This document shows positions 15,783 through 26,312 of a stretch of DNA of 64,000 nucleotides, piece by piece; the first letter of the stretch is position 1, and the number at the start of each line of letters is the position of its first letter. The notes beneath the pieces were generated by a model. That model saw only the letters and a program-made list of their open reading frames with translations, searched no databases and was not told where the DNA came from. Position numbers and translations under genes: made by a program. This DNA is from an uncultured Planctomycetota bacterium (GTDB lineage: Bacteria; Planctomycetota; Planctomycetia; Isosphaerales; Isosphaeraceae). The stretch lies in the NCBI GenBank assembly GCA_963823665.1, contig CAWGMQ010000006.1, positions 1,536,001 through 1,600,000 of the forward strand, given 5' to 3'.

Positions 15783-16998
15783 CTACACCAGCTCGCAGAA
15801 GACGCGGTCGGCAACGAAGACGCCTTGCGGCGTGAGTCTCACCGTCCGCCCATCGTCTTCGAGGTACCCCTGCGCCAGAAACCGCTTGATCACGCTTCCG
15901 GAGAGGAGGTCGAGGTCGTAGCCCGTTCGTAGCTTGAAATCTTCACGCTCGATGCCGGCCTTCGTGCGCCGCAGCATCAGCATGGCCGTCTCGCGCGCTC
16001 GTTCTTCGGGGCTGAGCTCTTCGTGCGGCCCTGTCGCACTCTGCCCGGCTTCCACCCGCCGCAGATAAGCGTCCAGGTCGCGGGTGCTGGTCGATCGAAC
16101 GCCGCGGAGGTATCGCGCTGCGCCACTCCGAAGCCGAAGTAGGCGTCATTCGCCCAGTAGACCAGGTTGTGCCGCGATTCCTGGCCGGGCCGTGCGAAAT
16201 TGGAGATCTCGTACATTGCCAGGCCCGCGCCTTCGAGCGTCTCGATCGTGGTCTCGTACATGAGGCGCTCGACTTCCTCGGCTAGCGGCTGCACCAGCCC
16301 GCTCTGCTTGCGCGCCCAGAGCGGCGTTCCCTTCTCGAAGACCAGCCCGTAGCACGAAAGATGCGACGGGCCGAGCGAAAGGGCCGTTTCGAGGTCGTTG
16401 CGCCACTGTTCGGTCGTCGAGCCCGGCACTCCGAAGATCAGGTCGAGCGACCAGCGCGCAAACCGCGGGCGGACGACCTCGAGCGCCCGATCAACCTCGG
16501 CACGGCCGTGCTCACGCTCGAGCACGGCCAGGAGGTCCGGCTGAAAGGACTGCGCGCCCAGGCTGATGCGGTTGACGCCGGCTTCTTCCAGCACGTCCGC
16601 CTTTTCCGCGTCGATCGTGCCGGGGTTTGCCTCGACCGTCCACTCGCCGCCGGGGGCGAGAATGAACCACTGCTTGAGGAAGCGGCACAGCGTATCCAAC
16701 TGAGATGCGGAAAGCCGCGTGGGCGTGCCGCCGCCCACGAAAATCGTGTCGACCTCCTGTGGTTTGGTGACGAAGGTCTCGACCTCGCGCTCGAGCGCCG
16801 CCAGATATCGATCGGCCTGATGGTCGACGCCGGCAAGTGAAGCGAAATCGCAGTAACCGCACTTGTGGCGCAAAACGGAATGTGGACGTAAACCGCGCGC
16901 GGCCAGCGCCACGGTGGCTCGATCACACGAACGGGCCCGGCGGCCACAGGATCACCGCGGTCGGGTTTGAGATCGGGGCGAACAAGCTCGTCGAGCAC
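15783..16998 (-). CDS. hemW: Radical SAM heme chaperone HemW (two frameshifts)
   Basis: YVHIPFC / HKCGYCDF, FVGGGTP, EANP, RISLGAQSF, YEISNFA...HNLVYW, and a HemN C-terminal domain. Confidence 0.85.
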
Positions 16999-17023
16999 CG
17001 TTTCGACGCGCCCGGGCCGTTGT

Positions 17024-17401
17024 TCAGTATTCGTTGCCGTATCCGCCGCCCCCGCGGTAGCCGCCGCCTCCACCACCGCCACGATATCCCCCCTCGCCGC
17101 CGCCACCGCCACCGCCTCCGCCACGATATCCGCCCTCGCCGCCGCCACCCGGCGTGCGCGGCCTGGCTTCGTTGACGGTCAGCCGGCGTCCGTCGAAGTC
17201 CTGGCCGTCGAGACTCTCGATCGCCGAAAGGGCTTCGTCGTCGTGCATCATCTCGACGAACCCGAACCCTCGGCTGCGCCCGGTTTCCCGGTCCGAGAGG
17301 ACCGAGGCCGAAGTGACGACACCGTATTGTTCAAATAATTCCTGGAGCTGCGCAGACGTGACGGTGTACTTGAGGTTGCCAACATAAAGACGCTTCGACA
17401 T
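17024..17401 (-). CDS. RRM RNA-binding protein with Gly-rich tail
   Basis: LYVGNL (RNP2), RGFGFVEM (RNP1), GGYRGG repeats. Confidence 0.93.
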   Translation of the reverse strand: MSKRLYVGNLKYTVTSAQLQELFEQYGVVTSASVLSDRETGRSRGFGFVEMMHDDEALSAIESLDGQDFDGRRLTVNEARPRTPGGGGEGGYRGGGGGGGGGEGGYRGGGGGGGYRGGGGYGNEY

Positions 17402-17723
17402 CGCACTTGCCTGAGAAAGGCTCTCCACGACCTCTGCCGAAATCTACCCCAAAAAAACTATAAACACTCCGGCCCGACGCATCAACGACAAAATGCTGGT
17501 CAAAACGAAATCTTTCGGTATTCGCCCGGCGCTGCGACCAAGCACTCTGGCGCGCAATGATAGACACGATTTCCCGGCTCACGAATCCTGGAAACTGGTT
17601 TGCGTCTTCGTGCGTGGTTAGAATCGGGCCGGCGGGACTCCAAGCACGCCGGATCTGGTGACATTCGCCTGATCTCTGCCTCCTGACCAGCCTCCACGGA
17701 TTCCCACCAAGGGGTGAACACTC

Positions 17724-18950
17724 ATGTGTGGCAGTGCGCAACGGATCGCCGGTCTCGCGATCGCTCTGGCAGTCGGCACAATCGCGGCGAACGGACGCTC
17801 GCTCGCGGGTGAGTGGAGCGTCACGGTGCGCGCGGGAGACATCGACCTGGGCGAAACGCCAATCCTCGCCGAGATCCCCGGGAGCATTGCGCCGGGGATG
17901 TATGACCTTCTCGCGGGTTCCGGTGAAGTTCCGATTGCCGGACAGGTCTTTCAAGAGGGGCGAAAGAGGCTGCTCGCCTTTGTTCTACCGGCAGCCGAGG
18001 GGCCGAGGCCCGCGGCGCTCACGCTCTTGGCCCGCGCCAAGACCGAGCGCGAGCCCGGCAAGGGGCTCTCCGTCACGGCCCAGGGCAACAATCTCATCGT
18101 CAAGCTCGATGAGAAGCCGCTGACGGAGTATCGCGTCGACTCCGGAAGCAAGCCGATCTTCTTCCCGCTGATCGGGCCGACCGGCGACTCGTATACGCGT
18201 GCGTTCCCGATGCAGGCGATCCCGGGGGAAGACGATGATCACCCTCATCAGCGATCGTGCTGGTTGACACATGGAAAGGTGAACGGGATCGATTTCTGGT
18301 CCGAAGGTGGAAAAGCGGGCAAGATCGAAGAGACCTATCAGGGCTTGATCGCCAGCGGACCGGTGCTGGTTCGCCTGGTCACCCGGAATGACTGGCTCGG
18401 GCCCGACGGCAAACGAGTTTGCAGTGACGAGCGCACGGTCACCTTCCACCGCACGCGGGTATCGCGAACCATCGACTTTGAATTCACGATTCGAGCGTCC
18501 GACGGCCCCTTGACCTTCGGCGCCACGAAGGAAGGGATGTTCGGCCTCCGGGTGGCGTCGTCGATGGATGTCAAACGGAAGACCGGAGGCCGCATCACCA
18601 ATGCGGAAGGCTTGACCGACGACGCAGCCTGGGGCAAAGCCTCGCCGTGGGTCGACTACGTTGGGCCCGTCAACCAGAAGACGGTCGGCATCGCGGTGCT
18701 CAACCACCCCGGCAGTTTTCGCTATCCCACCGCCTGGCACGTGCGGACCTACGGCCTGTTTGCCGCCAATCCATTCGGCGGGCACGACTTCGGCGGGCAG
18801 ATGCCCGGAGACCACACGATTCCCAACGGCGGCACGATCTTGTTTCGATATCGCGTCATCCTGCACGAGGGCGACACCAAAACCGCGCGGATCGATCGCG
18901 CGTTTGCCGCTTACGCCACGCCGCCGGCGGTCGAGGTTGCCGAGAAATGA
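17724..18950 (+). CDS. Secreted PmoA-family (PF14100/DUF6807-like) protein of unknown function
   Basis: Signal peptide; DHPHQRSCW, DFWSE, KEGMFGLRVA, WHVRTYGLFAANPFG. Confidence 0.7.
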   Translation: MCGSAQRIAGLAIALAVGTIAANGRSLAGEWSVTVRAGDIDLGETPILAEIPGSIAPGMYDLLAGSGEVPIAGQVFQEGRKRLLAFVLPAAEGPRPAALTLLARAKTEREPGKGLSVTAQGNNLIVKLDEKPLTEYRVDSGSKPIFFPLIGPTGDSYTRAFPMQAIPGEDDDHPHQRSCWLTHGKVNGIDFWSEGGKAGKIEETYQGLIASGPVLVRLVTRNDWLGPDGKRVCSDERTVTFHRTRVSRTIDFEFTIRASDGPLTFGATKEGMFGLRVASSMDVKRKTGGRITNAEGLTDDAAWGKASPWVDYVGPVNQKTVGIAVLNHPGSFRYPTAWHVRTYGLFAANPFGGHDFGGQMPGDHTIPNGGTILFRYRVILHEGDTKTARIDRAFAAYATPPAVEVAEK

Positions 18951-18954
18951 TTTC

Positions 18955-20620
18955 TCACCATTTCAGCGACAAGCGACTGTCGACGCCTTGCCCCAGTCCT
19001 TCGAGGTCCGATTTTCGCTCGTCGGGTGTCCTGGACTCGTCGAGGCACAGCCGAAGGGCGCTCGCCAGATCGCCCGCCCTGGCGCGCGCCGCGATGACCC
19101 GTTGCAGCGCGAATCGCTGATAGTTCTGGTCGTCGATCGACCGGATCGTCTTCAAGGCATCCGGAACGTGTCCGGCCATCGCCTGAATCTCGGCGAGGCT
19201 CGCGCTCGGACGCCGGCATATTCTGGCGGACGCCGGGTAATCTCGCGAGGTTCGGGTTGGGGCTGGGAGGATCCTTGACCGACAGACCGGCATCGGTCAG
19301 GGCTCGCGCGAATGTCGCCGTGGCGGCGGCGTGGTCGCCCGCCGCGGCCTGTGCCTGGGCGATGAGCGCGAGGCTTTCAGCCCTTCTGCCTGCCGTCGCC
19401 CGGCCCGAAATCTCTGACGCCGCCCGGACTGAAAGCAGCGCTCGGACCAGGTCGCCGCTGGCGACCTGGCCGCTGGCGATCTGGATATACCGGCCGTCGC
19501 GTCCCCGCATGTCCGGGTGTTCGCGCACGGAGCGAAATGCGTCGCGTAATGTTGCCCTGGCGCCGGCGGTATCGCCCGACTGAAGCTGCACGGTCGCGAT
19601 GCGGAGCAAGGCGTAAGGTTGGCCGTCTGTCATGTCGTAACCGGCGCGGGAAGGCCCTTCGCCGATCGCGATCGCCGATTGCTTCGCCGCCTCGAGATCA
19701 CCGAGGCGCGCCTGGGCGAGTGCCACATCACCGAGGCCGAAGTATGTCTGTTCGGCCGACTTCATCCTCGCGAGCCGCGTCGCGGCCTCTTGCACGAATC
19801 TTCGGGCGGCTTCTCGGTCGAGCGTCTTGGACGCAGCATCGGCGATTTTGCCAAGGACGTTTCCACCGTTCTCTCGCCCCACAGACCAACCGAACGCGGC
19901 TTCAAAGTCGCCGACGGCTGCCAGGGCTGCGGCAATCGTCGGGCGCACCCGTCACGGGCGTTGGCGATGTTGGTCGACGCGAAGAACTTCTTTGAGAACT
20001 CGAGCAGGAGCTCGACTGTCTTGTGTGCGTCTTCTCGGGCGCCGATCCCCACTTGCGTCTGCACGATTTCCGCCAGCGCGTCGACCACCGAGCGATCTTT
20101 CCCGAATTCGCCCGCGACCGCTGGCACCGCGCGGACGGCCCGCTCGAGCGTCGTGCGCGAGTCTTCCTTGAGGCCGCATTCGGCCTGCGCGTGGCCGATG
20201 CGCCAGAGGTTCCGCGGGCTAGCGTTGCCGCCGAAGCCTCCTTCGGCCTCTTTCGCAGCTTCGGCGAACGTGATGCGGGCTCCGTCCAGGTCGCCGGTTT
20301 TGGCCTGTGCAGTGGCGATTGCTGTCAAGGACCACGAGGACGGAACGGGCTTTGCCTTGACCAGCGCGACCGCCTCGCCTGATGCGCGACGGAGCAACTG
20401 GTGTAACTCTGCACGCGCGGGCAGCGCGACGAAGATGGGCGCGGACGGGCCGTTGGACGTCGGCGGATCGCGATGTTTCACGGCGGGCGCGGCGCTTTTC
20501 TGTGAGGCTGTTTGCGACGGAGCGATCGGGGTTCTCTTTCTGCGTCGCCTCAGAGGCGAGCGAAGCTGCTCCGGCAACGACCGAGCCGGCGAGCGCCAAC
20601 GCGACGACCGCGTCCGCCAT
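18955..20620 (-). CDS. Exported TPR-like helical repeat protein (frameshifted; start uncertain)
   Basis: Repeats of IA.AQA..GD..GA across ORFs 19762..20577, 18911..19948 and 18955..19293. Confidence 0.6.
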
Positions 20621-20810
20621 CAGTTTCGTCCACCACACGGCTTGAACGCCCCTTCCGTCTGGGAGGCCACGGACGTCGAAACGGGTCCGGCTGGCGAGAA
20701 GATTGTCAAAGATACCGCGCACGATCGTGTCGAATGAAGGCCGTTTTCGGATGAGGCGGCCACGAGTCAGCCGTCCAATTGCGTTGCGAAACGTCGCGAC
20801 GTCTGCGATC

Positions 20811-20900
20811 TCAGGGATAGAGCCCCAGTAGCACCCATTGACGCCTCGCGGCGACATGGACCGGACGGTTCATCTGAAGAATGGCGACGGTAACTCGCCC
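20811..20900 (-). pseudogene. C-terminal remnant of an HNH endonuclease
   Basis: Translates to GRVTVAILQMNRPVHVAARRQWVLLGLYP*, matching the tail of small HNH nucleases. No HNH core is present. Confidence 0.55.
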
Positions 20901-20917
20901 CTCAGCCGTCAGTCCGA

Positions 20918-21272
20918 TCAGGAGGCCAGATGCAGTGCAGCAGTGCGCTCTCCCGCGCCGCGGATCTCGGCGTCGATGAGATGCTCCAACTCGGTCTGTT
21001 CATCGGCCGAGAGCGTCTCCCCGGCCTCGCGCAGAGCGCGATCGTGTCATGAGTTGTTCCAGTCGCTCGCATTGCTGGGAAGTGAAGAATCGATCCGGGC
21101 CCAGGTTGCGTACGATGATCAGGGTGGCGGCCTCCCGGTCGGGAAGTTGGTTCGTGAGTGCGTCGAGCGCCTCGCCGGCAGTGCGTCCCACAGCCTGATT
21201 TCGCGCCGTCACGGCCGGGAATGAAGTTCCGGTCTGTCCCGGCTGATCTCGATATATGACGACCTTGATCAT
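20918..21272 (-). CDS. Small conserved hypothetical protein, probable antitoxin-like HNH partner (one frameshift near 21030)
   Basis: GRTAGEALDALT...PDRFFT..Q.ERLEQLM, continuing in another frame as GETLSADEQTELEHLIDAEIRGA. Confidence 0.55.
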
Positions 21273-21394
21273 GCACGCGCCCCAATTTCCATCCTCATCC
21301 CCTGATTGTTAGTTTACCGCGCTTTAGCTTGATCGCACAGCCTGCGCGGAAGCGGGACTGACGAAGCTGAGGCTGAGCACTCCCGAGGGAGTTT

Positions 21395-22024
21395 TCAGCC
21401 ACGTGCGTGCGGGGCCGCGTCATGCTTGGCCTTGTCGCGGCCGCCGAACTCCGCCGCGAGGAACTGACCCCACGCTTTCAAGGTGGGTGAAGTTCCGCGT
21501 TTCCGTTCCATCCCCATCTGTCCGTACGTCTGCTTCTTTCCTTCCGGCATGAAGATCGGATCCCAGTTGAATTTGTATTCGCCAAGGGCTTTCTCGGTGA
21601 CCTTGCCCCGGGTTTCGCCGCGGTGGACGCGGACGCGCAAGCCGTCGCAGTATCCGATCACCGAGAGGGCCGTTGCCTCTCGTGGCTCGCCGTCGCGCAG
21701 GAAACCGCACATCCGGTCTCCCACCGTTCTCCAGACGACCTCGCCGATACCGCCGAGCAAGCCGGGCGTGCGACCATCGCTCGAGCGCCAGGCGTCCAGG
21801 AGCAGACCGCCATGCTCCACCACGCACGGTCGCCTGACTTCCTTGTACGCCTCGAGAGCCTTGTGCCGCACAATGACTTCGATGTCGGGAAGCAAGAGAT
21901 CCTGGAGCACCCGCTTGATGGGGCAGATCTCGACTCCAAAGCGAGACTGGACGTCGTTCCGCTCGACGTAGTCGGCGACCTCGCTGATCTTGTACTGGTT
22001 GGCGGTTACGAAGTAGACCTTCAA
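21395..22024 (-). CDS. HAM1/ITPase-fold non-canonical purine nucleotide-binding protein with degenerate active site (KomB-like)
   Basis: FVTANQYK, HKA, VEHGGL (canonical DDSGL/EDTGL), FNWDPIF, YGQM...K..SPT (canonical SHR). TTG start overlaps the SIR2 stop. Confidence 0.85.
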   Translation of the reverse strand: MKVYFVTANQYKISEVADYVERNDVQSRFGVEICPIKRVLQDLLLPDIEVIVRHKALEAYKEVRRPCVVEHGGLLLDAWRSSDGRTPGLLGGIGEVVWRTVGDRMCGFLRDGEPREATALSVIGYCDGLRVRVHRGETRGKVTEKALGEYKFNWDPIFMPEGKKQTYGQMGMERKRGTSPTLKAWGQFLAAEFGGRDKAKHDAAPHARG

Positions 22025-22830
22025 AGGAGTGACTCCAGAAACTCGCCGACGCTCTTGACGGGGTCGACCGGGTCCAATTCCAAAATGGAAACATCCCAGC
22101 GCGCCAGGAGCAGCCGCTGAATCTCACCGGTGCCGAAGGTTGTCAGGTAGGCACTCGGATAACGCTTCCCGTCGCGCCGTAACTGGAGCCTCAGTTTGTG
22201 CAATTTGTATAGCATATACCTTATGTTGATATCGCTCAAACTATAGCCGATGAAGAGAAGCGTCTTGCCGAGGATGTCGGCCCGCAGCTTGATGTCGATC
22301 GCGGATTCGAACTCGAGACGCTCGAAGAAACTCGATTCGGTGAGCACGAGGGTTGCATCGTCATCGAAGCTGCCGTGGAACTTCACCACGTGGGTTGCGT
22401 CGGGAGCCGACGCGGCGATGTCGTCGATGTTGGCGATCGTATGGCACCCGACGCCTTTCAGCTCGAATGCTCTCTCGATGATACGATCATAATTCGTTGT
22501 GTAGATGAGAGGCAATCCCATTTCAACCAGCGCGCCGTGCGCTCGAGATTTCTCGATCAGCTCGTTCGCCGGGTTGAACCGTCGGTCGAGCTCGCTGCGC
22601 AGCGGGCCGATTCCGCCCTTCTTGGCTACGTAATACTCGGCGAGCTGGCGCTCGTCGCCGTTCAGTTTGAAGACCTCAGGGTCATACCCGAGTTGATTGG
22701 CGATGATGCCGATCAGACTGGACCACGACGGCAGGCCCAGCGGCATCGACAGACCCGCGCCGATGAAGGGAATGAGTCGACGCTCTTCTCGAAGTCTGCG
22801 AAGCGTTTCTGACTCATCACCGAGTGACAC
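22021..22830 (-). CDS. Stand-alone SIR2-like (SIR2_2) NADase-type protein (KomC-like)
   Basis: PFIGAGLS..GLPSW, IYTTNYD, VKFHGS, LLFIGYSLSDINI. Confidence 0.9.
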   Translation of the reverse strand: MSLGDESETLRRLREERRLIPFIGAGLSMPLGLPSWSSLIGIIANQLGYDPEVFKLNGDERQLAEYYVAKKGGIGPLRSELDRRFNPANELIEKSRAHGALVEMGLPLIYTTNYDRIIERAFELKGVGCHTIANIDDIAASAPDATHVVKFHGSFDDDATLVLTESSFFERLEFESAIDIKLRADILGKTLLFIGYSLSDINIRYMLYKLHKLRLQLRRDGKRYPSAYLTTFGTGEIQRLLLARWDVSILELDPVDPVKSVGEFLESLL

Positions 22831-23245
22831 TGCACGGTTTCCGCTGGAGGTAAAAACACAATTGCCCGTGTCGCCTCTCGCGAAGCGAGAGATGGCACGG
22901 GCAAAATCACGCCTCCGCCGGAATGCCGTTGAAGTGCTTTTGAGAACCCGCAGTTCAAGTGGGGAGTTGAGGGATGCTAAGAACGAAGTTCCTGGATGCC
23001 GCTCGAGGTCCCCGTCGGGTTAAATGTTGGTTCGCCAAAAGGACCACTTCTTATCGAACATGGCAGAGGCAGTGCCTGGTTAAACCAGACGGTGCTAATC
23101 TAACCGCAGCGCACGCGGTTGGCAATATGCCACCCGAAACGGTGCCAAAAATCACCGGAGCAGGCGCTGCATTGCGCACGATCGCAGAGCAGGAGGTTGG
23201 TCCTCCCGGGAGATTGCGAGAATACACCGCCGCCGGAGCTGCGCT

Positions 23246-24002
23246 TCACTCTGTGACATCACCGCGGAGCCGGCGGATCTGATCACGCAGCCGAGCGGCT
23301 TCTTCGTAGTCTTCGCGAACGACAGAGAGCTCGAGCTGCTGTTCCAGGCGTTCCAGCGGCTCCATCGGGCGTTCGCGCTTCACTTCGCGGCGCCAGTTGA
23401 TGAGCGACTTGAGCTCCGGCACATTCCTGCTCGCGATCCTCTTGCTTGTATTCGCGGAGAAACTTGCGAATCGCCTTGATGCCTGCGTCGATCAGCGCCA
23501 GCGCGGTCGGGTGATCGCTTTCCTTGAGTGCGATCGACGCTTTCGCCCGCGTGTACATCATCTGAACATAGGGGCGATACCTGTCAAATTCGATCTTGTC
23601 ACGCTGTCGCGCGGCGTACCGGCCCACAAACGCGAAGAGCCGGAGGTTGCGTAGCGTGTCGAGAGCCACGATTTCATATCGCTCAAGATGGAACGCGGAA
23701 AGATAGCGATGATAATACTGCAATCCCTCACGCATGAGCTGCGAGCAAACTTCGGGGCCGAGGGAGAAGGCGGAGCCGCGTTCGGCGGCTTCCTGGGCTT
23801 TGGCCTCATAAAAGTCGAGGAGCGATTCGTGTCCTTCGGGGCGTTCGCCGTCGGGGCGGCCGGTCGTCTCGAGCTGGATCAGGCCCAGGTCGATGCGCAT
23901 CTGGATTTTCTCGCGGCCGTCTTCTCCGGTGATGAAGCGGACCTGGAGCTGGTCCGGCTCGAACTCCCAGCCGTCGAGTAGGTGTTGTATGTCCTGGCTC
24001 AA
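23246..24002 (-). CDS. UvrB/UvrC (UVR) motif-containing protein (frameshift near 23420)
   Basis: QMRIDLGLIQLETTGRPDG N-terminus; the alternative frame ends LEQQLELSVVREDYEEAARLRDQI. Confidence 0.75.
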
Positions 24003-24181
24003 GCGAACGATCTCCCCTGGGGCTCACCGCGAGCTGATGAAGAGCTGCGCGGCGCGGGCCGTGAGCGAGTAGTCCCTTAACTATTGTATGCACCGGAGAG
24101 CGTGCTGCGCGGCCCGAAAAGAAAATTCCGAGCACGGGTGTGCTCGGAAGAAGGGCTTCGTCCTGGAATGAGAGCGGGAGC

Positions 24182-25282
24182 CTAGATGTCGTTATTGTCG
24201 TGGATCATCGGCTCGAGCTCTTTGGTGTTGCGTTCGACCGCGAGCACGATTGTGCGTTCTTCGCCACCGTCGGCGCTGGCCGCGACCGCGGGGATGATCT
24301 GGCGCGAGTCGGGCAGGCTGAATCGCACCGTGAACGACCCGTCGCTGCGCAGGTTGACGGGCTCTCCCTGCAGGGTGACGTGGGCGCCGGGCTCGGTAAT
24401 TCCGTACACGATCAACTCGGCGTCGATCTGGAAATGGAAGGCCCGCCCCAGCGGGACCAGCGGGGTCGTTGCCAGGTTCTGCAGGGATGCGCTGGCCATG
24501 GGGCGGCGCAGCCGCTCCTCGAACAGATCGCGCAGATCGATCGGCGAGAGGGGCTGGTGGGAGCCGTTGCCGTTTGGGCTCGGGTTATGAATCCGCTCGA
24601 ATTGTTTCTGCACGTTGCTCCAGTTTTCATCGAGCGCGTCGGTGACTCCGGCCCGGGGCGTGGTGACGACGTTGGACCGCGCCAGCACGTAGAATTTGCC
24701 GCGCCGGGAGACGTATCCGACGTCGACTCGATACGACCGAGGGGGCTCGAGCACGTCGATATACCAGTTGTTGACGCCACCGTGGATCGGGATGTCGCGG
24801 ACGTGGCGCTCGGCCGAGGAGGTAGTGTCTTCGCTGGAGACGTCCATCACTCGGAGGATCGGCCGGGCTTCGTGCCAGTCTTGCCCCAGGGCGGCCCGTG
24901 CGCGAGAGAGGGTCGTCCGGCTCAGCTCCCAGTAGGCGTGCAGCCAGTAGGAATCGCGGGTCAAGACGATGATCCGGTCCTTCTGGCATGCGTGATCGAG
25001 CGTATGGTCCGCCGGCGCCGCGGCCAGGTGGTTCGCCGTGCCGTTGGAGCCGCGCCGCATTGGCGGGGCCGGCACACTTCCGGGTTTCTTTCGCCGCGCG
25101 GCGCTCACGGCCGCAGGCCGAGCCTTTTTCTTTTTCGGACTCTTGGCAGGTGCCGGGCGCGAGCCGGAAAGTGCCCGGATCAGTTGGTCCTTCCTCATCG
25201 CGTGCCAGCCCGCTATGCCCTTGTCTCGCGCCAATTGGGCCAACCGCCTTTTATTGCATTCTTTGAGTGCCTCAACAGTCAT
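24182..25282 (-). CDS. DUF4912 domain protein with Rho-N-like N-terminus
   Basis: LAQLARDKGIAGWHAMRKDQLI; RDSYWLHAYWE; NNWYI; IDAELIVYG.TEP. Confidence 0.8.
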   Translation of the reverse strand: MTVEALKECNKRRLAQLARDKGIAGWHAMRKDQLIRALSGSRPAPAKSPKKKKARPAAVSAARRKKPGSVPAPPMRRGSNGTANHLAAAPADHTLDHACQKDRIIVLTRDSYWLHAYWELSRTTLSRARAALGQDWHEARPILRVMDVSSEDTTSSAERHVRDIPIHGGVNNWYIDVLEPPRSYRVDVGYVSRRGKFYVLARSNVVTTPRAGVTDALDENWSNVQKQFERIHNPSPNGNGSHQPLSPIDLRDLFEERLRRPMASASLQNLATTPLVPLGRAFHFQIDAELIVYGITEPGAHVTLQGEPVNLRSDGSFTVRFSLPDSRQIIPAVAASADGGEERTIVLAVERNTKELEPMIHDNNDI

Positions 25283-25810
25283 ACGGTGCCACTCCGACAC
25301 CCCCCGCTTTGCCCGAAGCGGCCACTACGAGGGATGAATGTGATTGAATGAGACATTCATCCGTGAGTGGACCGATCCGGAAGGCTCCCTGCTTCCCGGA
25401 CGTCAGCTATTCAGGAAGGGCGTGCCGGCCAGGACTGTGCCCCCGATGTGCGCATCAAAAAAGCGGCTATCGGGCCGGAAACTCCGGTCGTGATACCGCT
25501 TGCATCGCTCACGCTGGTGGCACTCTGCGCAACACTATCGCCATGACGGATCCCCGCGGTGAGCAATGTCGGTTGAGTCGAAGAGCGGCGGTCGGGGGAT
25601 TTAGCACTCGCTTCCAATCGCTGGTTATCAGATACCATATCGAGGCAAGGTCTGTCAATCGCCTATTTTCCCAGTTCGACGTTCAAATACGCACGTTTGC
25701 GGCATCGGTCGTTACAACCTCCCCGACCGGCTTCACAATCGCCAATCTCCGTTCAGTTTCGGACCTCGGAGTGACTTTGTGAAAAATTTCTCGAATTGGG
25801 GTCTGGCTTG

Positions 25811-25839
25811 TTGACATGGCGAGTTGTGCTCAGTATAAC
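25811..25839 (+). promoter_or_regulatory. Sigma70-type promoter of the atp operon
   Basis: TTGACA (25811-25816), 17-bp spacer, TATAAC (25834-25839), upstream of the first atp gene. Confidence 0.75.
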
Positions 25840-25982
25840 TGAACGCAGTTTGACCTCCCTCTACGTTCGGAGTTTTCCGGCTGTGCGAGGCTTTCCGGGC
25901 TGTTGCGGTCGGCCTGCCCCGTGGGCCGGAGTGACTCTGGCTCGGATCGCGGGTGCCGGCTCCGGGGAAGTGGGAGTCGCAG

Positions 25983-26312
25983 GTGGCCAAGCAGCCTGAG
26001 CAGCGATCGGCGCTTGCGGTCGGCATCGAGTGGTCCTCCAGGGTCACGACCGTGGCGCTGGGGTTCTCTGTACCGCCGGTGATTGGCTTTATCGTGGATC
26101 GATGGCTGGGCTGGGCACCTGTCGGAACTTTGGTCGGAATCGTGGTGGGCTTTGTGTCGGGTCTGCTCCAAACCGTCCGGCTCGCGAGCGGGCTGCCTGG
26201 AGTGAAGTCTCGGGGGACAGGCGGCTCTGGCGGGGCCGCGGATAGGACGAGGTCCGGCGGCCTGGAGATCCCGGATCGCCGGTCGCAGCCTCCCGGCCAG
26301 GATTCGGCCTAG
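25983..26312 (+). CDS. AtpZ/AtpI family protein
   Basis: Two TM segments with G..VDRWLG..P..TLVG; first gene of the atp operon. Confidence 0.75.
   Translation: MAKQPEQRSALAVGIEWSSRVTTVALGFSVPPVIGFIVDRWLGWAPVGTLVGIVVGFVSGLLQTVRLASGLPGVKSRGTGGSGGAADRTRSGGLEIPDRRSQPPGQDSA

Follow-up and report, generated by a model that had tools for sequence, protein, structure and literature searches.

A SIR2–HAM1 gene pair homologous to KomC and KomB, without an adjacent adenosine deaminase gene, in an Isosphaeraceae bacterium and in related loci of at least six phyla

The gene pair and its predicted products

In the genome of an uncultured planctomycete of the family Isosphaeraceae (assembly GCA_963823665.1), we studied two overlapping genes encoding a SIR2 and a HAM1 protein, located in a stretch of 64,000 nucleotides (contig CAWGMQ010000006.1, positions 1,536,001 to 1,600,000 of the forward strand) that is further called the window. 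The pair resembles KomC and KomB of Kongming (KomA-KomB-KomC), described in Escherichia coli NCTC13216 (Zeng et al., bioRxiv 10.1101/2024.12.20.629578, later Science 2025; Li et al., Nat Commun 2026, PMC13454610) and represented by the structures 8zsf, 8zsg, 8zsh, 8zsi and 9xvc. Kongming is defined as three genes and the classical system needs the deaminase KomA, KomC alone being inactive (Zeng et al., bioRxiv 10.1101/2024.12.20.629578); deoxyinosine triphosphate (dITP) remodels the KomBC filament (Li et al., PMC13454610). The original prediction, made from the sequence alone, had put the pair forward as a Kongming-like anti-phage module without a deaminase. The assembly measures 16.46 Mb in 12 contigs and is 91.9% complete, and the pair, on contig C6, has the following features:

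22021-22830, minus strand: SIR2 gene, KomC-type, 269 amino acids (aa), GTG start; SIR2_2 domain (Pfam PF13289, E 3.9e-24)
21395-22024, minus strand: HAM1 gene, KomB-type, 209 aa, TTG start; Ham1p_like domain (Pfam PF01725, E 3.8e-23)
22021-22024, minus strand: stop/start overlap of SIR2 and HAM1, 4 bp, TTGA, read from the sequence

Open reading frame (ORF) coordinates and Pfam calls agree that SIR2 precedes HAM1 as separate, overlapping ORFs, and the minus-strand sequence bears out the predicted 4-bp overlap, in which the TTG start of HAM1 shares bases with the TGA stop of SIR2 (minus strand 22024-22021) and by which both genes are predicted to be coupled translationally. The three SIR2 motifs that had been pointed out are present in the translation (GAGLS at residues 24-28, TTNYD at 111-115 and KFHG at 150-153). 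As had been claimed, no deaminase gene adjoins the pair in the window, neither among the Pfam calls of the neighbouring genes nor by tblastn over the window with KomA and Add. The remark on locally AT-rich stretches holds for SIR2 (GC content 0.572 compared to 0.618 for the window, with a lowest 500-bp bin of 0.552) but not for HAM1 (0.627).

Among all PDB sequences, the closest relative of the SIR2 protein is KomC (8zsf, E 4.8e-71; residues 17-267 aligned with 11-260 of 264), with ThsA and DSR2 trailing far behind. Residues N113, H152 and D200 align (HMMER) with N107, H146 and D194 of KomC, of which H146 and D194 are essential (Zeng et al., bioRxiv 10.1101/2024.12.20.629578; Li et al., PMC13454610), and N113, D115, H152 and D200 are invariant in all 29 intact pairs compared. 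In sequence the protein has what is expected of a KomC, namely membership of the SIR2_2 family of enzymes hydrolyzing nicotinamide adenine dinucleotide (NAD+; NADases) together with the catalytic His and the counterpart of D194. PADLOC 2.0 (2023), which contains no Kongming model, returned ThsA of the Thoeris system as top match (106.6 bits), for the SIR2 domain only. The SIR2 NADase domain is common to both proteins, ThsA being found among the PDB relatives at an E of about 1e-20; however, the ThsA profile is matched at positions 20-211 of 478 only, the 269-aa window protein has no second domain, and the pair lacks a SLOG/STALD domain, its presumed sensor being a separate HAM1 protein. Moreover, no ThsB/TIR gene was found by Pfam among the window neighbours of the pair. 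In the genome as a whole, 13 places match SIR2_2, several of them in large proteins or in tandem pairs (e.g. C3:1269986 and 1270997; C10:2173359 and 2176096), which suggests that this genome may hold many SIR2-based systems.

The HAM1 protein finds its closest PDB relative in KomB (8zsg, E 1.2e-24), has no match in PADLOC 2.0, and reaches a top NCBIfam score of 90.8 bits, far below the cut-off of 203 for the inosine triphosphate pyrophosphatase (ITPase) equivalog. It shares with the housekeeping ITPase RdgB/HAM1 the fold and the phosphate- and purine-binding residues, and differs from it by a histidine (H71) at the position of the catalytic aspartate (VVEHGG compared to LTDDSG in the genome's own housekeeping ITPase, a separate, normal copy with the catalytic Asp on contig C11) and by reading SPT at the SHR motif. 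The Asp-to-His change is invariable in 'defensive HAM1s', and N9, K12 and E15, which the window protein keeps at KomB's own numbering, are the KomB residues mutated in a binding-dead control (Zeng et al., bioRxiv 10.1101/2024.12.20.629578). In all 29 intact pairs K12, E15, K55, E70, H71, W154 and D155 are invariant. The window HAM1 most likely has a catalytically dead ITPase fold and serves as a nucleotide sensor.

The nine residues by which KomB contacts dITP (R8, H11, K49, H65, T66, F140, Q141, W142 and R168; Li et al., PMC13454610) have the following counterparts in the window HAM1 (HMMER alignment):

KomB K49: K55, kept
KomB H65: H71, kept
KomB F140: F152, kept
KomB W142: W154, kept
KomB R8: A8, changed
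KomB H11: Y11, changed
KomB T66: G72, changed
KomB Q141: N153, changed
KomB R168: T181, changed

Li et al. (Nat Commun 2026, PMC13454610) single out Q141 as critical and as unique to KomB. The equivalent of F152 is present in 21 of the 29 intact pairs. Judged by these residues, a purine nucleoside triphosphate (NTP) pocket is retained in its phosphate-binding and stacking parts and not in its base-reading parts. It is because of the kept phosphate and stacking residues, and of nothing else, that we infer a nucleotide ligand, which would be purine (d)NTP-like with its base left unassigned, as the pocket neither supports nor excludes dITP.

Relatives of the pair and comparison with Kongming

Relatives were collected by the HAM1 protein together with their DNA, yielding 35 loci from one-genome-per-species contigs and 80 loci from metagenome contigs. 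SIR2 lies directly upstream of HAM1 in 32 of the 35 genomic loci, 28 of which are intact, three split by a frameshift (L012, L035, L042) and one left with a 52-aa remnant (L043), and at least 29 of the 32 have the same 4-bp overlap as the window. The three other genomic loci comprise two with HAM1 before SIR2, as in classical Kongming (Pseudomonas, Stutzerimonas), and one with HAM1 alone. SIR2 is likewise directly upstream of HAM1 in 75 of the 80 metagenomic loci; in four of the other five HAM1 starts at most 145 bp from the contig end, in the fifth (L116), which has 814 bp of upstream DNA, HAM1 is matched only in part, from residue 36 on. This brings the loci with SIR2 first to 107, or 108 with the window, across at least six phyla.

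None of these 107 related loci has an adenosine deaminase beside the pair. At the 35 genomic loci, none of the 176 flank ORFs that lie no more than 2.6 kb away (159 of them from the 32 loci with SIR2 first) matches the deaminase family PF00962, nor does any of 121 metagenomic flank ORFs, i.e. 120 of 156 nearest-neighbour ORFs and one extra; the 36 ORFs omitted were 21 more copies of the methyltransferase and HARE-HTH genes described below and 15 duplicates (near-identical contigs or a shadow ORF). When Vibrio KomA and Zymomonas Add were searched by six-frame tblastn in the 115 loci (884 kb) and the whole window, both control loci were matched and, besides these, only a weak hit in L041 was obtained (E about 1e-5), on the opposite strand 5 kb upstream. 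An amidohydrolase gene lies downstream of the decayed copy L043. The original prediction had named as evidence against itself that homologous pairs nearly always carry a deaminase, which is the opposite of what is found here; as the same deaminase-free architecture recurs in the related loci, the window copy is not a truncated Kongming.

All-against-all clustering of the flank ORFs of the 108 loci revealed a single recurrent neighbourhood, a methyltransferase subtype of 16 loci (L040, L041, L109-L111, L118, L120, L122, L125, L128, L130, L131, L133, L135, L137, L138). Its genes sit upstream on the same strand and encode a TehB-like S-adenosylmethionine (SAM) methyltransferase in 16 loci, a HARE-HTH protein of about 505 aa in 14 and a D12-class N6-adenine methyltransferase in 8. 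A PCNA gene lies downstream in L133, suggesting an archaeal contig. In the other 92 of the 108 loci, window included, the clustering found no recurrent neighbour; a third conserved gene was looked for and rejected, since only shadow ORFs, close-relative synteny and the methyltransferase subtype emerged. Upstream DNA of 1.5 kb or more is available for 66 loci; of these, 14 belong to the methyltransferase subtype and the other 52 are bare. Bare pairs seldom have a close co-oriented neighbour: the nearest ORF lies on their strand at a distance of at most 60 bp in 3 of 57 cases upstream and in 6 of 70 downstream, and the pair therefore behaves as a self-contained operon. A few bare loci adjoin integrases or genes for a PD-(D/E)XK nuclease, a patatin, or DUF4062 or CHAT-domain proteins.

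In a HAM1 tree (40 rows, quick IQ-TREE run), whose root is unreliable because of the long housekeeping outgroup, the six HAM1-first rows group as one clade (support 98 in the Shimodaira-Hasegawa-like approximate likelihood ratio test, SH-aLRT) on a long branch apart from the 32 SIR2-first rows. This clade includes a Vibrio plasmid operon with KomA and a Zymomonas plasmid with a divergent add gene; nearest to it lie L040 and L041, both of the methyltransferase subtype, and L043. The window HAM1 groups with an Isosphaeraceae copy as its sister (support 97), and the phyla are intermixed. By its sequences, then, the branch with SIR2 first is real, large and distinct, and it is predicted to be horizontally mobile.

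Both genes are under purifying selection, the ratio of non-synonymous to synonymous substitution rates (dN/dS) being 0.04-0.32 in pairs unsaturated at synonymous sites (for the window compared to L012, 0.12 for SIR2 and 0.21 for HAM1). The two proteins co-vary, with a Spearman coefficient of 0.62 between HAM1 and SIR2 distances over the 29 intact pairs and none of 2000 Mantel permutations as high, HAM1 evolving faster (mean p-distance 0.448 compared to 0.316). An exhaustive profile-free search of 1.84 billion representatives returned 1348 HAM1 relatives at E <= 1e-3, 238 at <= 1e-10 and 9 at <= 1e-30. Among 16 long relatives, 11 are HAM1-SIR2_2 fusions and two are HAM1-TIR fusions, only 26-37% identical to the window HAM1 and not close to this branch; a word-index search of longer proteins gave no fused forms. 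KomBC fusions are known as well (Zeng et al., bioRxiv 10.1101/2024.12.20.629578), and the HAM1-SIR2 fusions support a direct physical coupling of sensor and effector. A prediction of the SIR2-HAM1 complex from alignments scored 0.12 compared to a mark of 0.32 and was counted neither way. The two HAM1-TIR proteins (P0247 and P0233) have the KomB-like Asp-to-His motif FVEHTGL and look like a dead-ITPase sensor joined to a TIR effector instead of SIR2; in their main texts, the two Kongming papers (Zeng et al.; Li et al.) mention only SIR2 partners.

The best PDB matches and the survey thus agree with the proposal of a true KomC/KomB homologue pair without deaminase. It shares with Kongming a SIR2 that is homologous to KomC over the full length and keeps its catalytic Asn, His and Asp, and a KomB homologue with the Asp-to-His change, N9, K12 and E15, encoded by adjacent, co-varying genes of one operon. 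It differs from Kongming by the lack of KomA, by SIR2 being first with a 4-bp overlap, whereas the E. coli and Vibrio operons have the reverse order, by the separate long branch of its HAM1 (SH-aLRT 98), by the changed dITP contacts and by a chromosomal location instead of a prophage or plasmid. Zeng et al. (bioRxiv 10.1101/2024.12.20.629578) distinguish two major clades of defensive HAM1s, all defensive HAM1s being tied to KomC, and state that the pairing of KomB with KomC is constant, that the association with KomA is 'less conserved', and that KomA can be replaced by genes for a 5'-nucleotidase, a uracil-DNA glycosylase (UDG), an NTPase or a SAM methyltransferase or by RADAR-like genes. As KomA-less KomBC modules have thus already been reported, the bare pair is a Kongming variant and not a separate system. 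The 16-locus methyltransferase subtype fits their 'SAM-dependent methyltransferase' association; in contrast to their modules, in which other nucleotide enzymes take the place of KomA, 92 of our 108 loci have no recurrent neighbour. The main texts of Zeng et al. and Li et al., fig. S19 not being covered, describe no pair with nothing beside it and none with SIR2 first, and literature searches on Kongming, KomBC and HAM1-SIR2, as far as the sources found were accessible, yielded no description of a two-gene, SIR2-first type. A Pantoea plasmid pair (NZ_CP104759.1, one locus inspected) is also of the KomB/KomC type with no adenosine deaminase annotated beside it; it differs in having HAM1 first, shows 33% (HAM1) and 44% (SIR2) identity to the window and groups with classical Kongming. 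On this Pantoea piersonii plasmid (L059), the opposite strand encodes an 'amidohydrolase family protein' about 800 bp downstream of the pair. A SIR2 match is present in 95 Pantoea plasmid records, of which this one locus was inspected.

Genomic setting and upstream DNA

The surroundings of the pair comprise four further features:

18951-22857, no strand: species-specific segment of 3,907 bp with the pair, a 90-aa ORF and two TPR-like ORFs
18911-20577, minus strand: the two TPR-like ORFs, 345 aa and 271 aa, with a 187-bp overlap in different frames
22908-23072, minus strand: probable 6S RNA gene (ssrS), full-length match to Rfam RF00013, 35 bits compared to a gathering score of 46.4, E 1.3e-5
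23097-23125, minus strand: sigma-70-like promoter match (TTGCCA, 17 nt, TAGATT), 9/12 matches, by consensus only

With the HAM1 query, the pair was found in 2 of 40 relatives, namely as a frameshifted copy in a genome of the same family and as a HAM1-first copy of 33% identity, and it was not found in the same-genus genome G001 (84% complete). On either side of the segment, G001:C4 is colinear with the window, with 81% identity over 16000-18950 and 85% over 22858-26187; nothing in 18951-22857 matches G001 at this place, where an unrelated 400 bp (G001:C4:3025854-3026253) is the counterpart. The translation of these 400 bp resembles, by eye, a putative aldo-keto-reductase-type gene fragment. 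The site downstream of ssrS looks like a variable spot. On one side the segment directly follows the stop codon of a DUF6807 gene, and on the other it ends 27 bp before the SIR2 start codon (GTG); no direct or inverted repeat of at least 8 bases is shared by the two 120-bp edge zones. With the nearest relative, L012, DNA similarity (77%) spans only 22829-21410, i.e. the two genes. In context the pair thus belongs to a species-specific segment of 3.9 kb, and known defence genes are rare beside its relatives. The 90-aa ORF has no family match, the two TPR-like ORFs are possibly one frameshifted gene, and in the clustering of flank ORFs none of them ever recurs beside the pair in other loci. A decayed HNH module had been proposed next to the pair; no HNH domain is present in any stop-to-stop frame of 20219-21308 (Pfam, E <= 0.1), the frame at 21000-21308 has no match in PADLOC either, and this remnant was rejected. 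A match to RT-15 RNA at 19410-19481 (26.6 bits compared to a gathering score of 82) was taken as chance.

Upstream of the pair, where about 400 bp of apparently non-coding DNA had been noted, roughly 450 bp hold the 6S RNA match. This match is the only one in the 16.46-Mb genome; exactly one is found in 22 of 26 genomes (25 relatives and the own genome; 13 above the gathering score), G001 has it at the syntenic place, and the candidate aligns with 12 family copies through a conserved closing stem and five pairs with compensatory change. For these reasons we accept 22908-23072 as probably the ssrS gene. The segment with the pair begins about 50 bp past the 3' end of the 6S RNA; the 6S gene is taken to be resident core DNA, on the same strand as the pair and outside the module. 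Being core DNA with an RNA gene, the upstream DNA would not be the footprint of a lost deaminase, which matters for annotation, as this "empty" DNA is not a lost gene. The promoter-like match (23125-23097), just before the 6S RNA, is the only such site upstream of the pair, and no terminator-like site was found between 6S RNA and SIR2 on the minus strand; the pair is possibly transcribed by read-through from ssrS. Further upstream (23246-24002, minus strand), a 239-aa ORF without family overlaps a 58-aa ORF in another frame that has a UVR-type motif and weak NCBIfam matches to McsA, UvrB and UvrC; both are possibly one frameshifted gene.

Proposed mechanism and alternative explanations

We consider it probable that the pair works as a sensor and effector of the KomBC type, in which the binding of a non-canonical purine nucleotide made in trans leads to depletion of NAD+. 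By homology to KomB-KomC, HAM1 and SIR2 would assemble as a hetero-oligomer that stays silent until HAM1 binds a non-canonical purine (deoxy)nucleoside triphosphate; bound HAM1 would turn on SIR2, and the resulting NAD+ hydrolysis would make the infected cell die or stop growing (abortive infection). As no signal-making enzyme is encoded alongside, the activating nucleotide would come from the phage or from host metabolism in trans. Going further, the bare branch could be a synthase-less immune sensor of a modified purine nucleotide that is made wholly by the invader or by infection damage to the host pool, in the manner of a receptor for a small-molecule mark left by infection, a suggestion we regard as tentative and rather doubtful.

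A number of observations weigh against a defensive, nucleotide-sensing role of the pair. Five of the nine dITP contacts of KomB differ in the window HAM1, and the branch shows wide variation at the positions equivalent to R8, H11, Q141 and R168; since H11, Q141 and R168 are replaced and variable, the ligand may not be dITP and members may read different nucleotides. With about 70% identity between phyla, SIR2 is more conserved than is usual for a defence gene. The Pfam neighbours of related pairs look mostly housekeeping, and PADLOC matches (E <= 1e-10) were found for 5 of 136 flank ORFs, in 4 loci, all to generic domains (kinase, methyltransferase, HTH, radical SAM), the flank genes being called by a longest-ORF heuristic on metagenome-assembled genome (MAG) and metagenome contigs. 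A pattern-based scan of IMG/VR gave no copy of the branch, the SIR2 protein matched no phage record (INPHARED), and the plasmid matches inspected (43-48% identity) were HAM1-first or SIR2 alone, outside this branch. On one of the plasmids (L060, Mesorhizobium ciceri, NZ_CP088148.1), a KomC-like SIR2 of 44% identity has no HAM1 within 4 kb on either side by tblastn.

Several of these points suit another explanation, in which the pair has no role in defence but acts as a checkpoint linking deaminated or damaged purine nucleotides, as arise by nitrosative or oxidative stress, to NAD+ turnover or growth arrest. Housekeeping-type neighbours with almost no known defence genes near, the high conservation of SIR2 and the lack of an encoded synthase, which would make an endogenous metabolite the natural ligand, all agree with it, and because of the ordinary flanks and the missing phage and IMG/VR copies it stays live. 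A checkpoint would however be hard to reconcile with the patchy distribution (2 of 40 relatives with the HAM1 query, and not the sister genome), with the mixing of phyla in the tree, with the insertion being species-specific, with the presence of a normal ITPase in the genome and with SIR2 being closest to proven NADase immune effectors, KomC and then ThsA and DSR2, so that we hold this explanation to be unlikely. The varying base-reading positions (H11, Q141, R168) would also fit a defence system that responds to a phage protein or to the loss of a host factor instead of a free nucleotide, with HAM1 as only a scaffold or inhibitor of SIR2; a scaffold would not need the phosphate- and Mg-binding K12, E15, K55 and E70 nor the purine-stacking W154 and F152 (the latter in 21 of 29), all kept under selection, which makes this very unlikely.

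Two other explanations turn on KomA itself. The pair could work with an unlinked RdrB-like adenosine deaminase that supplies inosine triphosphate (ITP) or dITP on infection, as a split hybrid of Kongming and RADAR, and RADAR-like systems do adjoin some KomBC modules (Zeng et al., bioRxiv 10.1101/2024.12.20.629578). The search of the genome for KomA called for by the original prediction bears on this in two ways: a Vibrio KomA protein query found nothing, and PF00962 matches once (29.9 bits, profile 231-304), at the tail of an RdrB-like gene on contig C11 (L061:7636-10002), of which the main frame of 788 aa scores 88.7 bits to PADLOC RdrB. The A_deaminase-like C-terminus of this gene lies in another frame, by either a frameshift in the gene or an assembly error, and the pair is on another contig. 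In the same RADAR-like locus (L061:4985-10350), a 505-aa ORF upstream of the RdrB-like ORF has a weak RdrA match (22 bits). Of five other pair-carrying genomes, three have PF00962, never near the pair, and none has RdrB, with the own genome as positive control; in this small sample there is no consistent unlinked partner, and a split hybrid is quite unlikely. That the pair is a decayed, non-functional remnant of a three-gene Kongming after loss of KomA would follow from the need of the classical system for KomA, and 4 of the 35 genomic relatives are indeed damaged (L012, L035 and L042 frameshifted, L043 truncated). The same deaminase-free architecture in 107 other loci of at least six phyla, the intact frames of both window genes, the invariant catalytic residues and the dN/dS of 0.04-0.32 speak against decay, and the frameshifted copies sit in MAGs, in which assembly errors are possible; we therefore consider a remnant highly improbable.

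To our knowledge, no immune pathway before Kongming had been shown to use a base-modified nucleotide as its signal. The pathway as published depends on a deaminase encoded by the system itself; a large branch that crosses phyla keeps the sensor and the NADase under selection without a signal maker, which poses the question of what the activating nucleotide is and what makes it. If the ligand is simply dITP from host enzymes, the branch would be a modest extension of the known system. If, on the other hand, it comes from the phage or from a perturbed host pool, the pairs would be direct sensors of abnormal nucleotides, and the variation of their pockets might offer a natural library of modified-nucleotide sensors.

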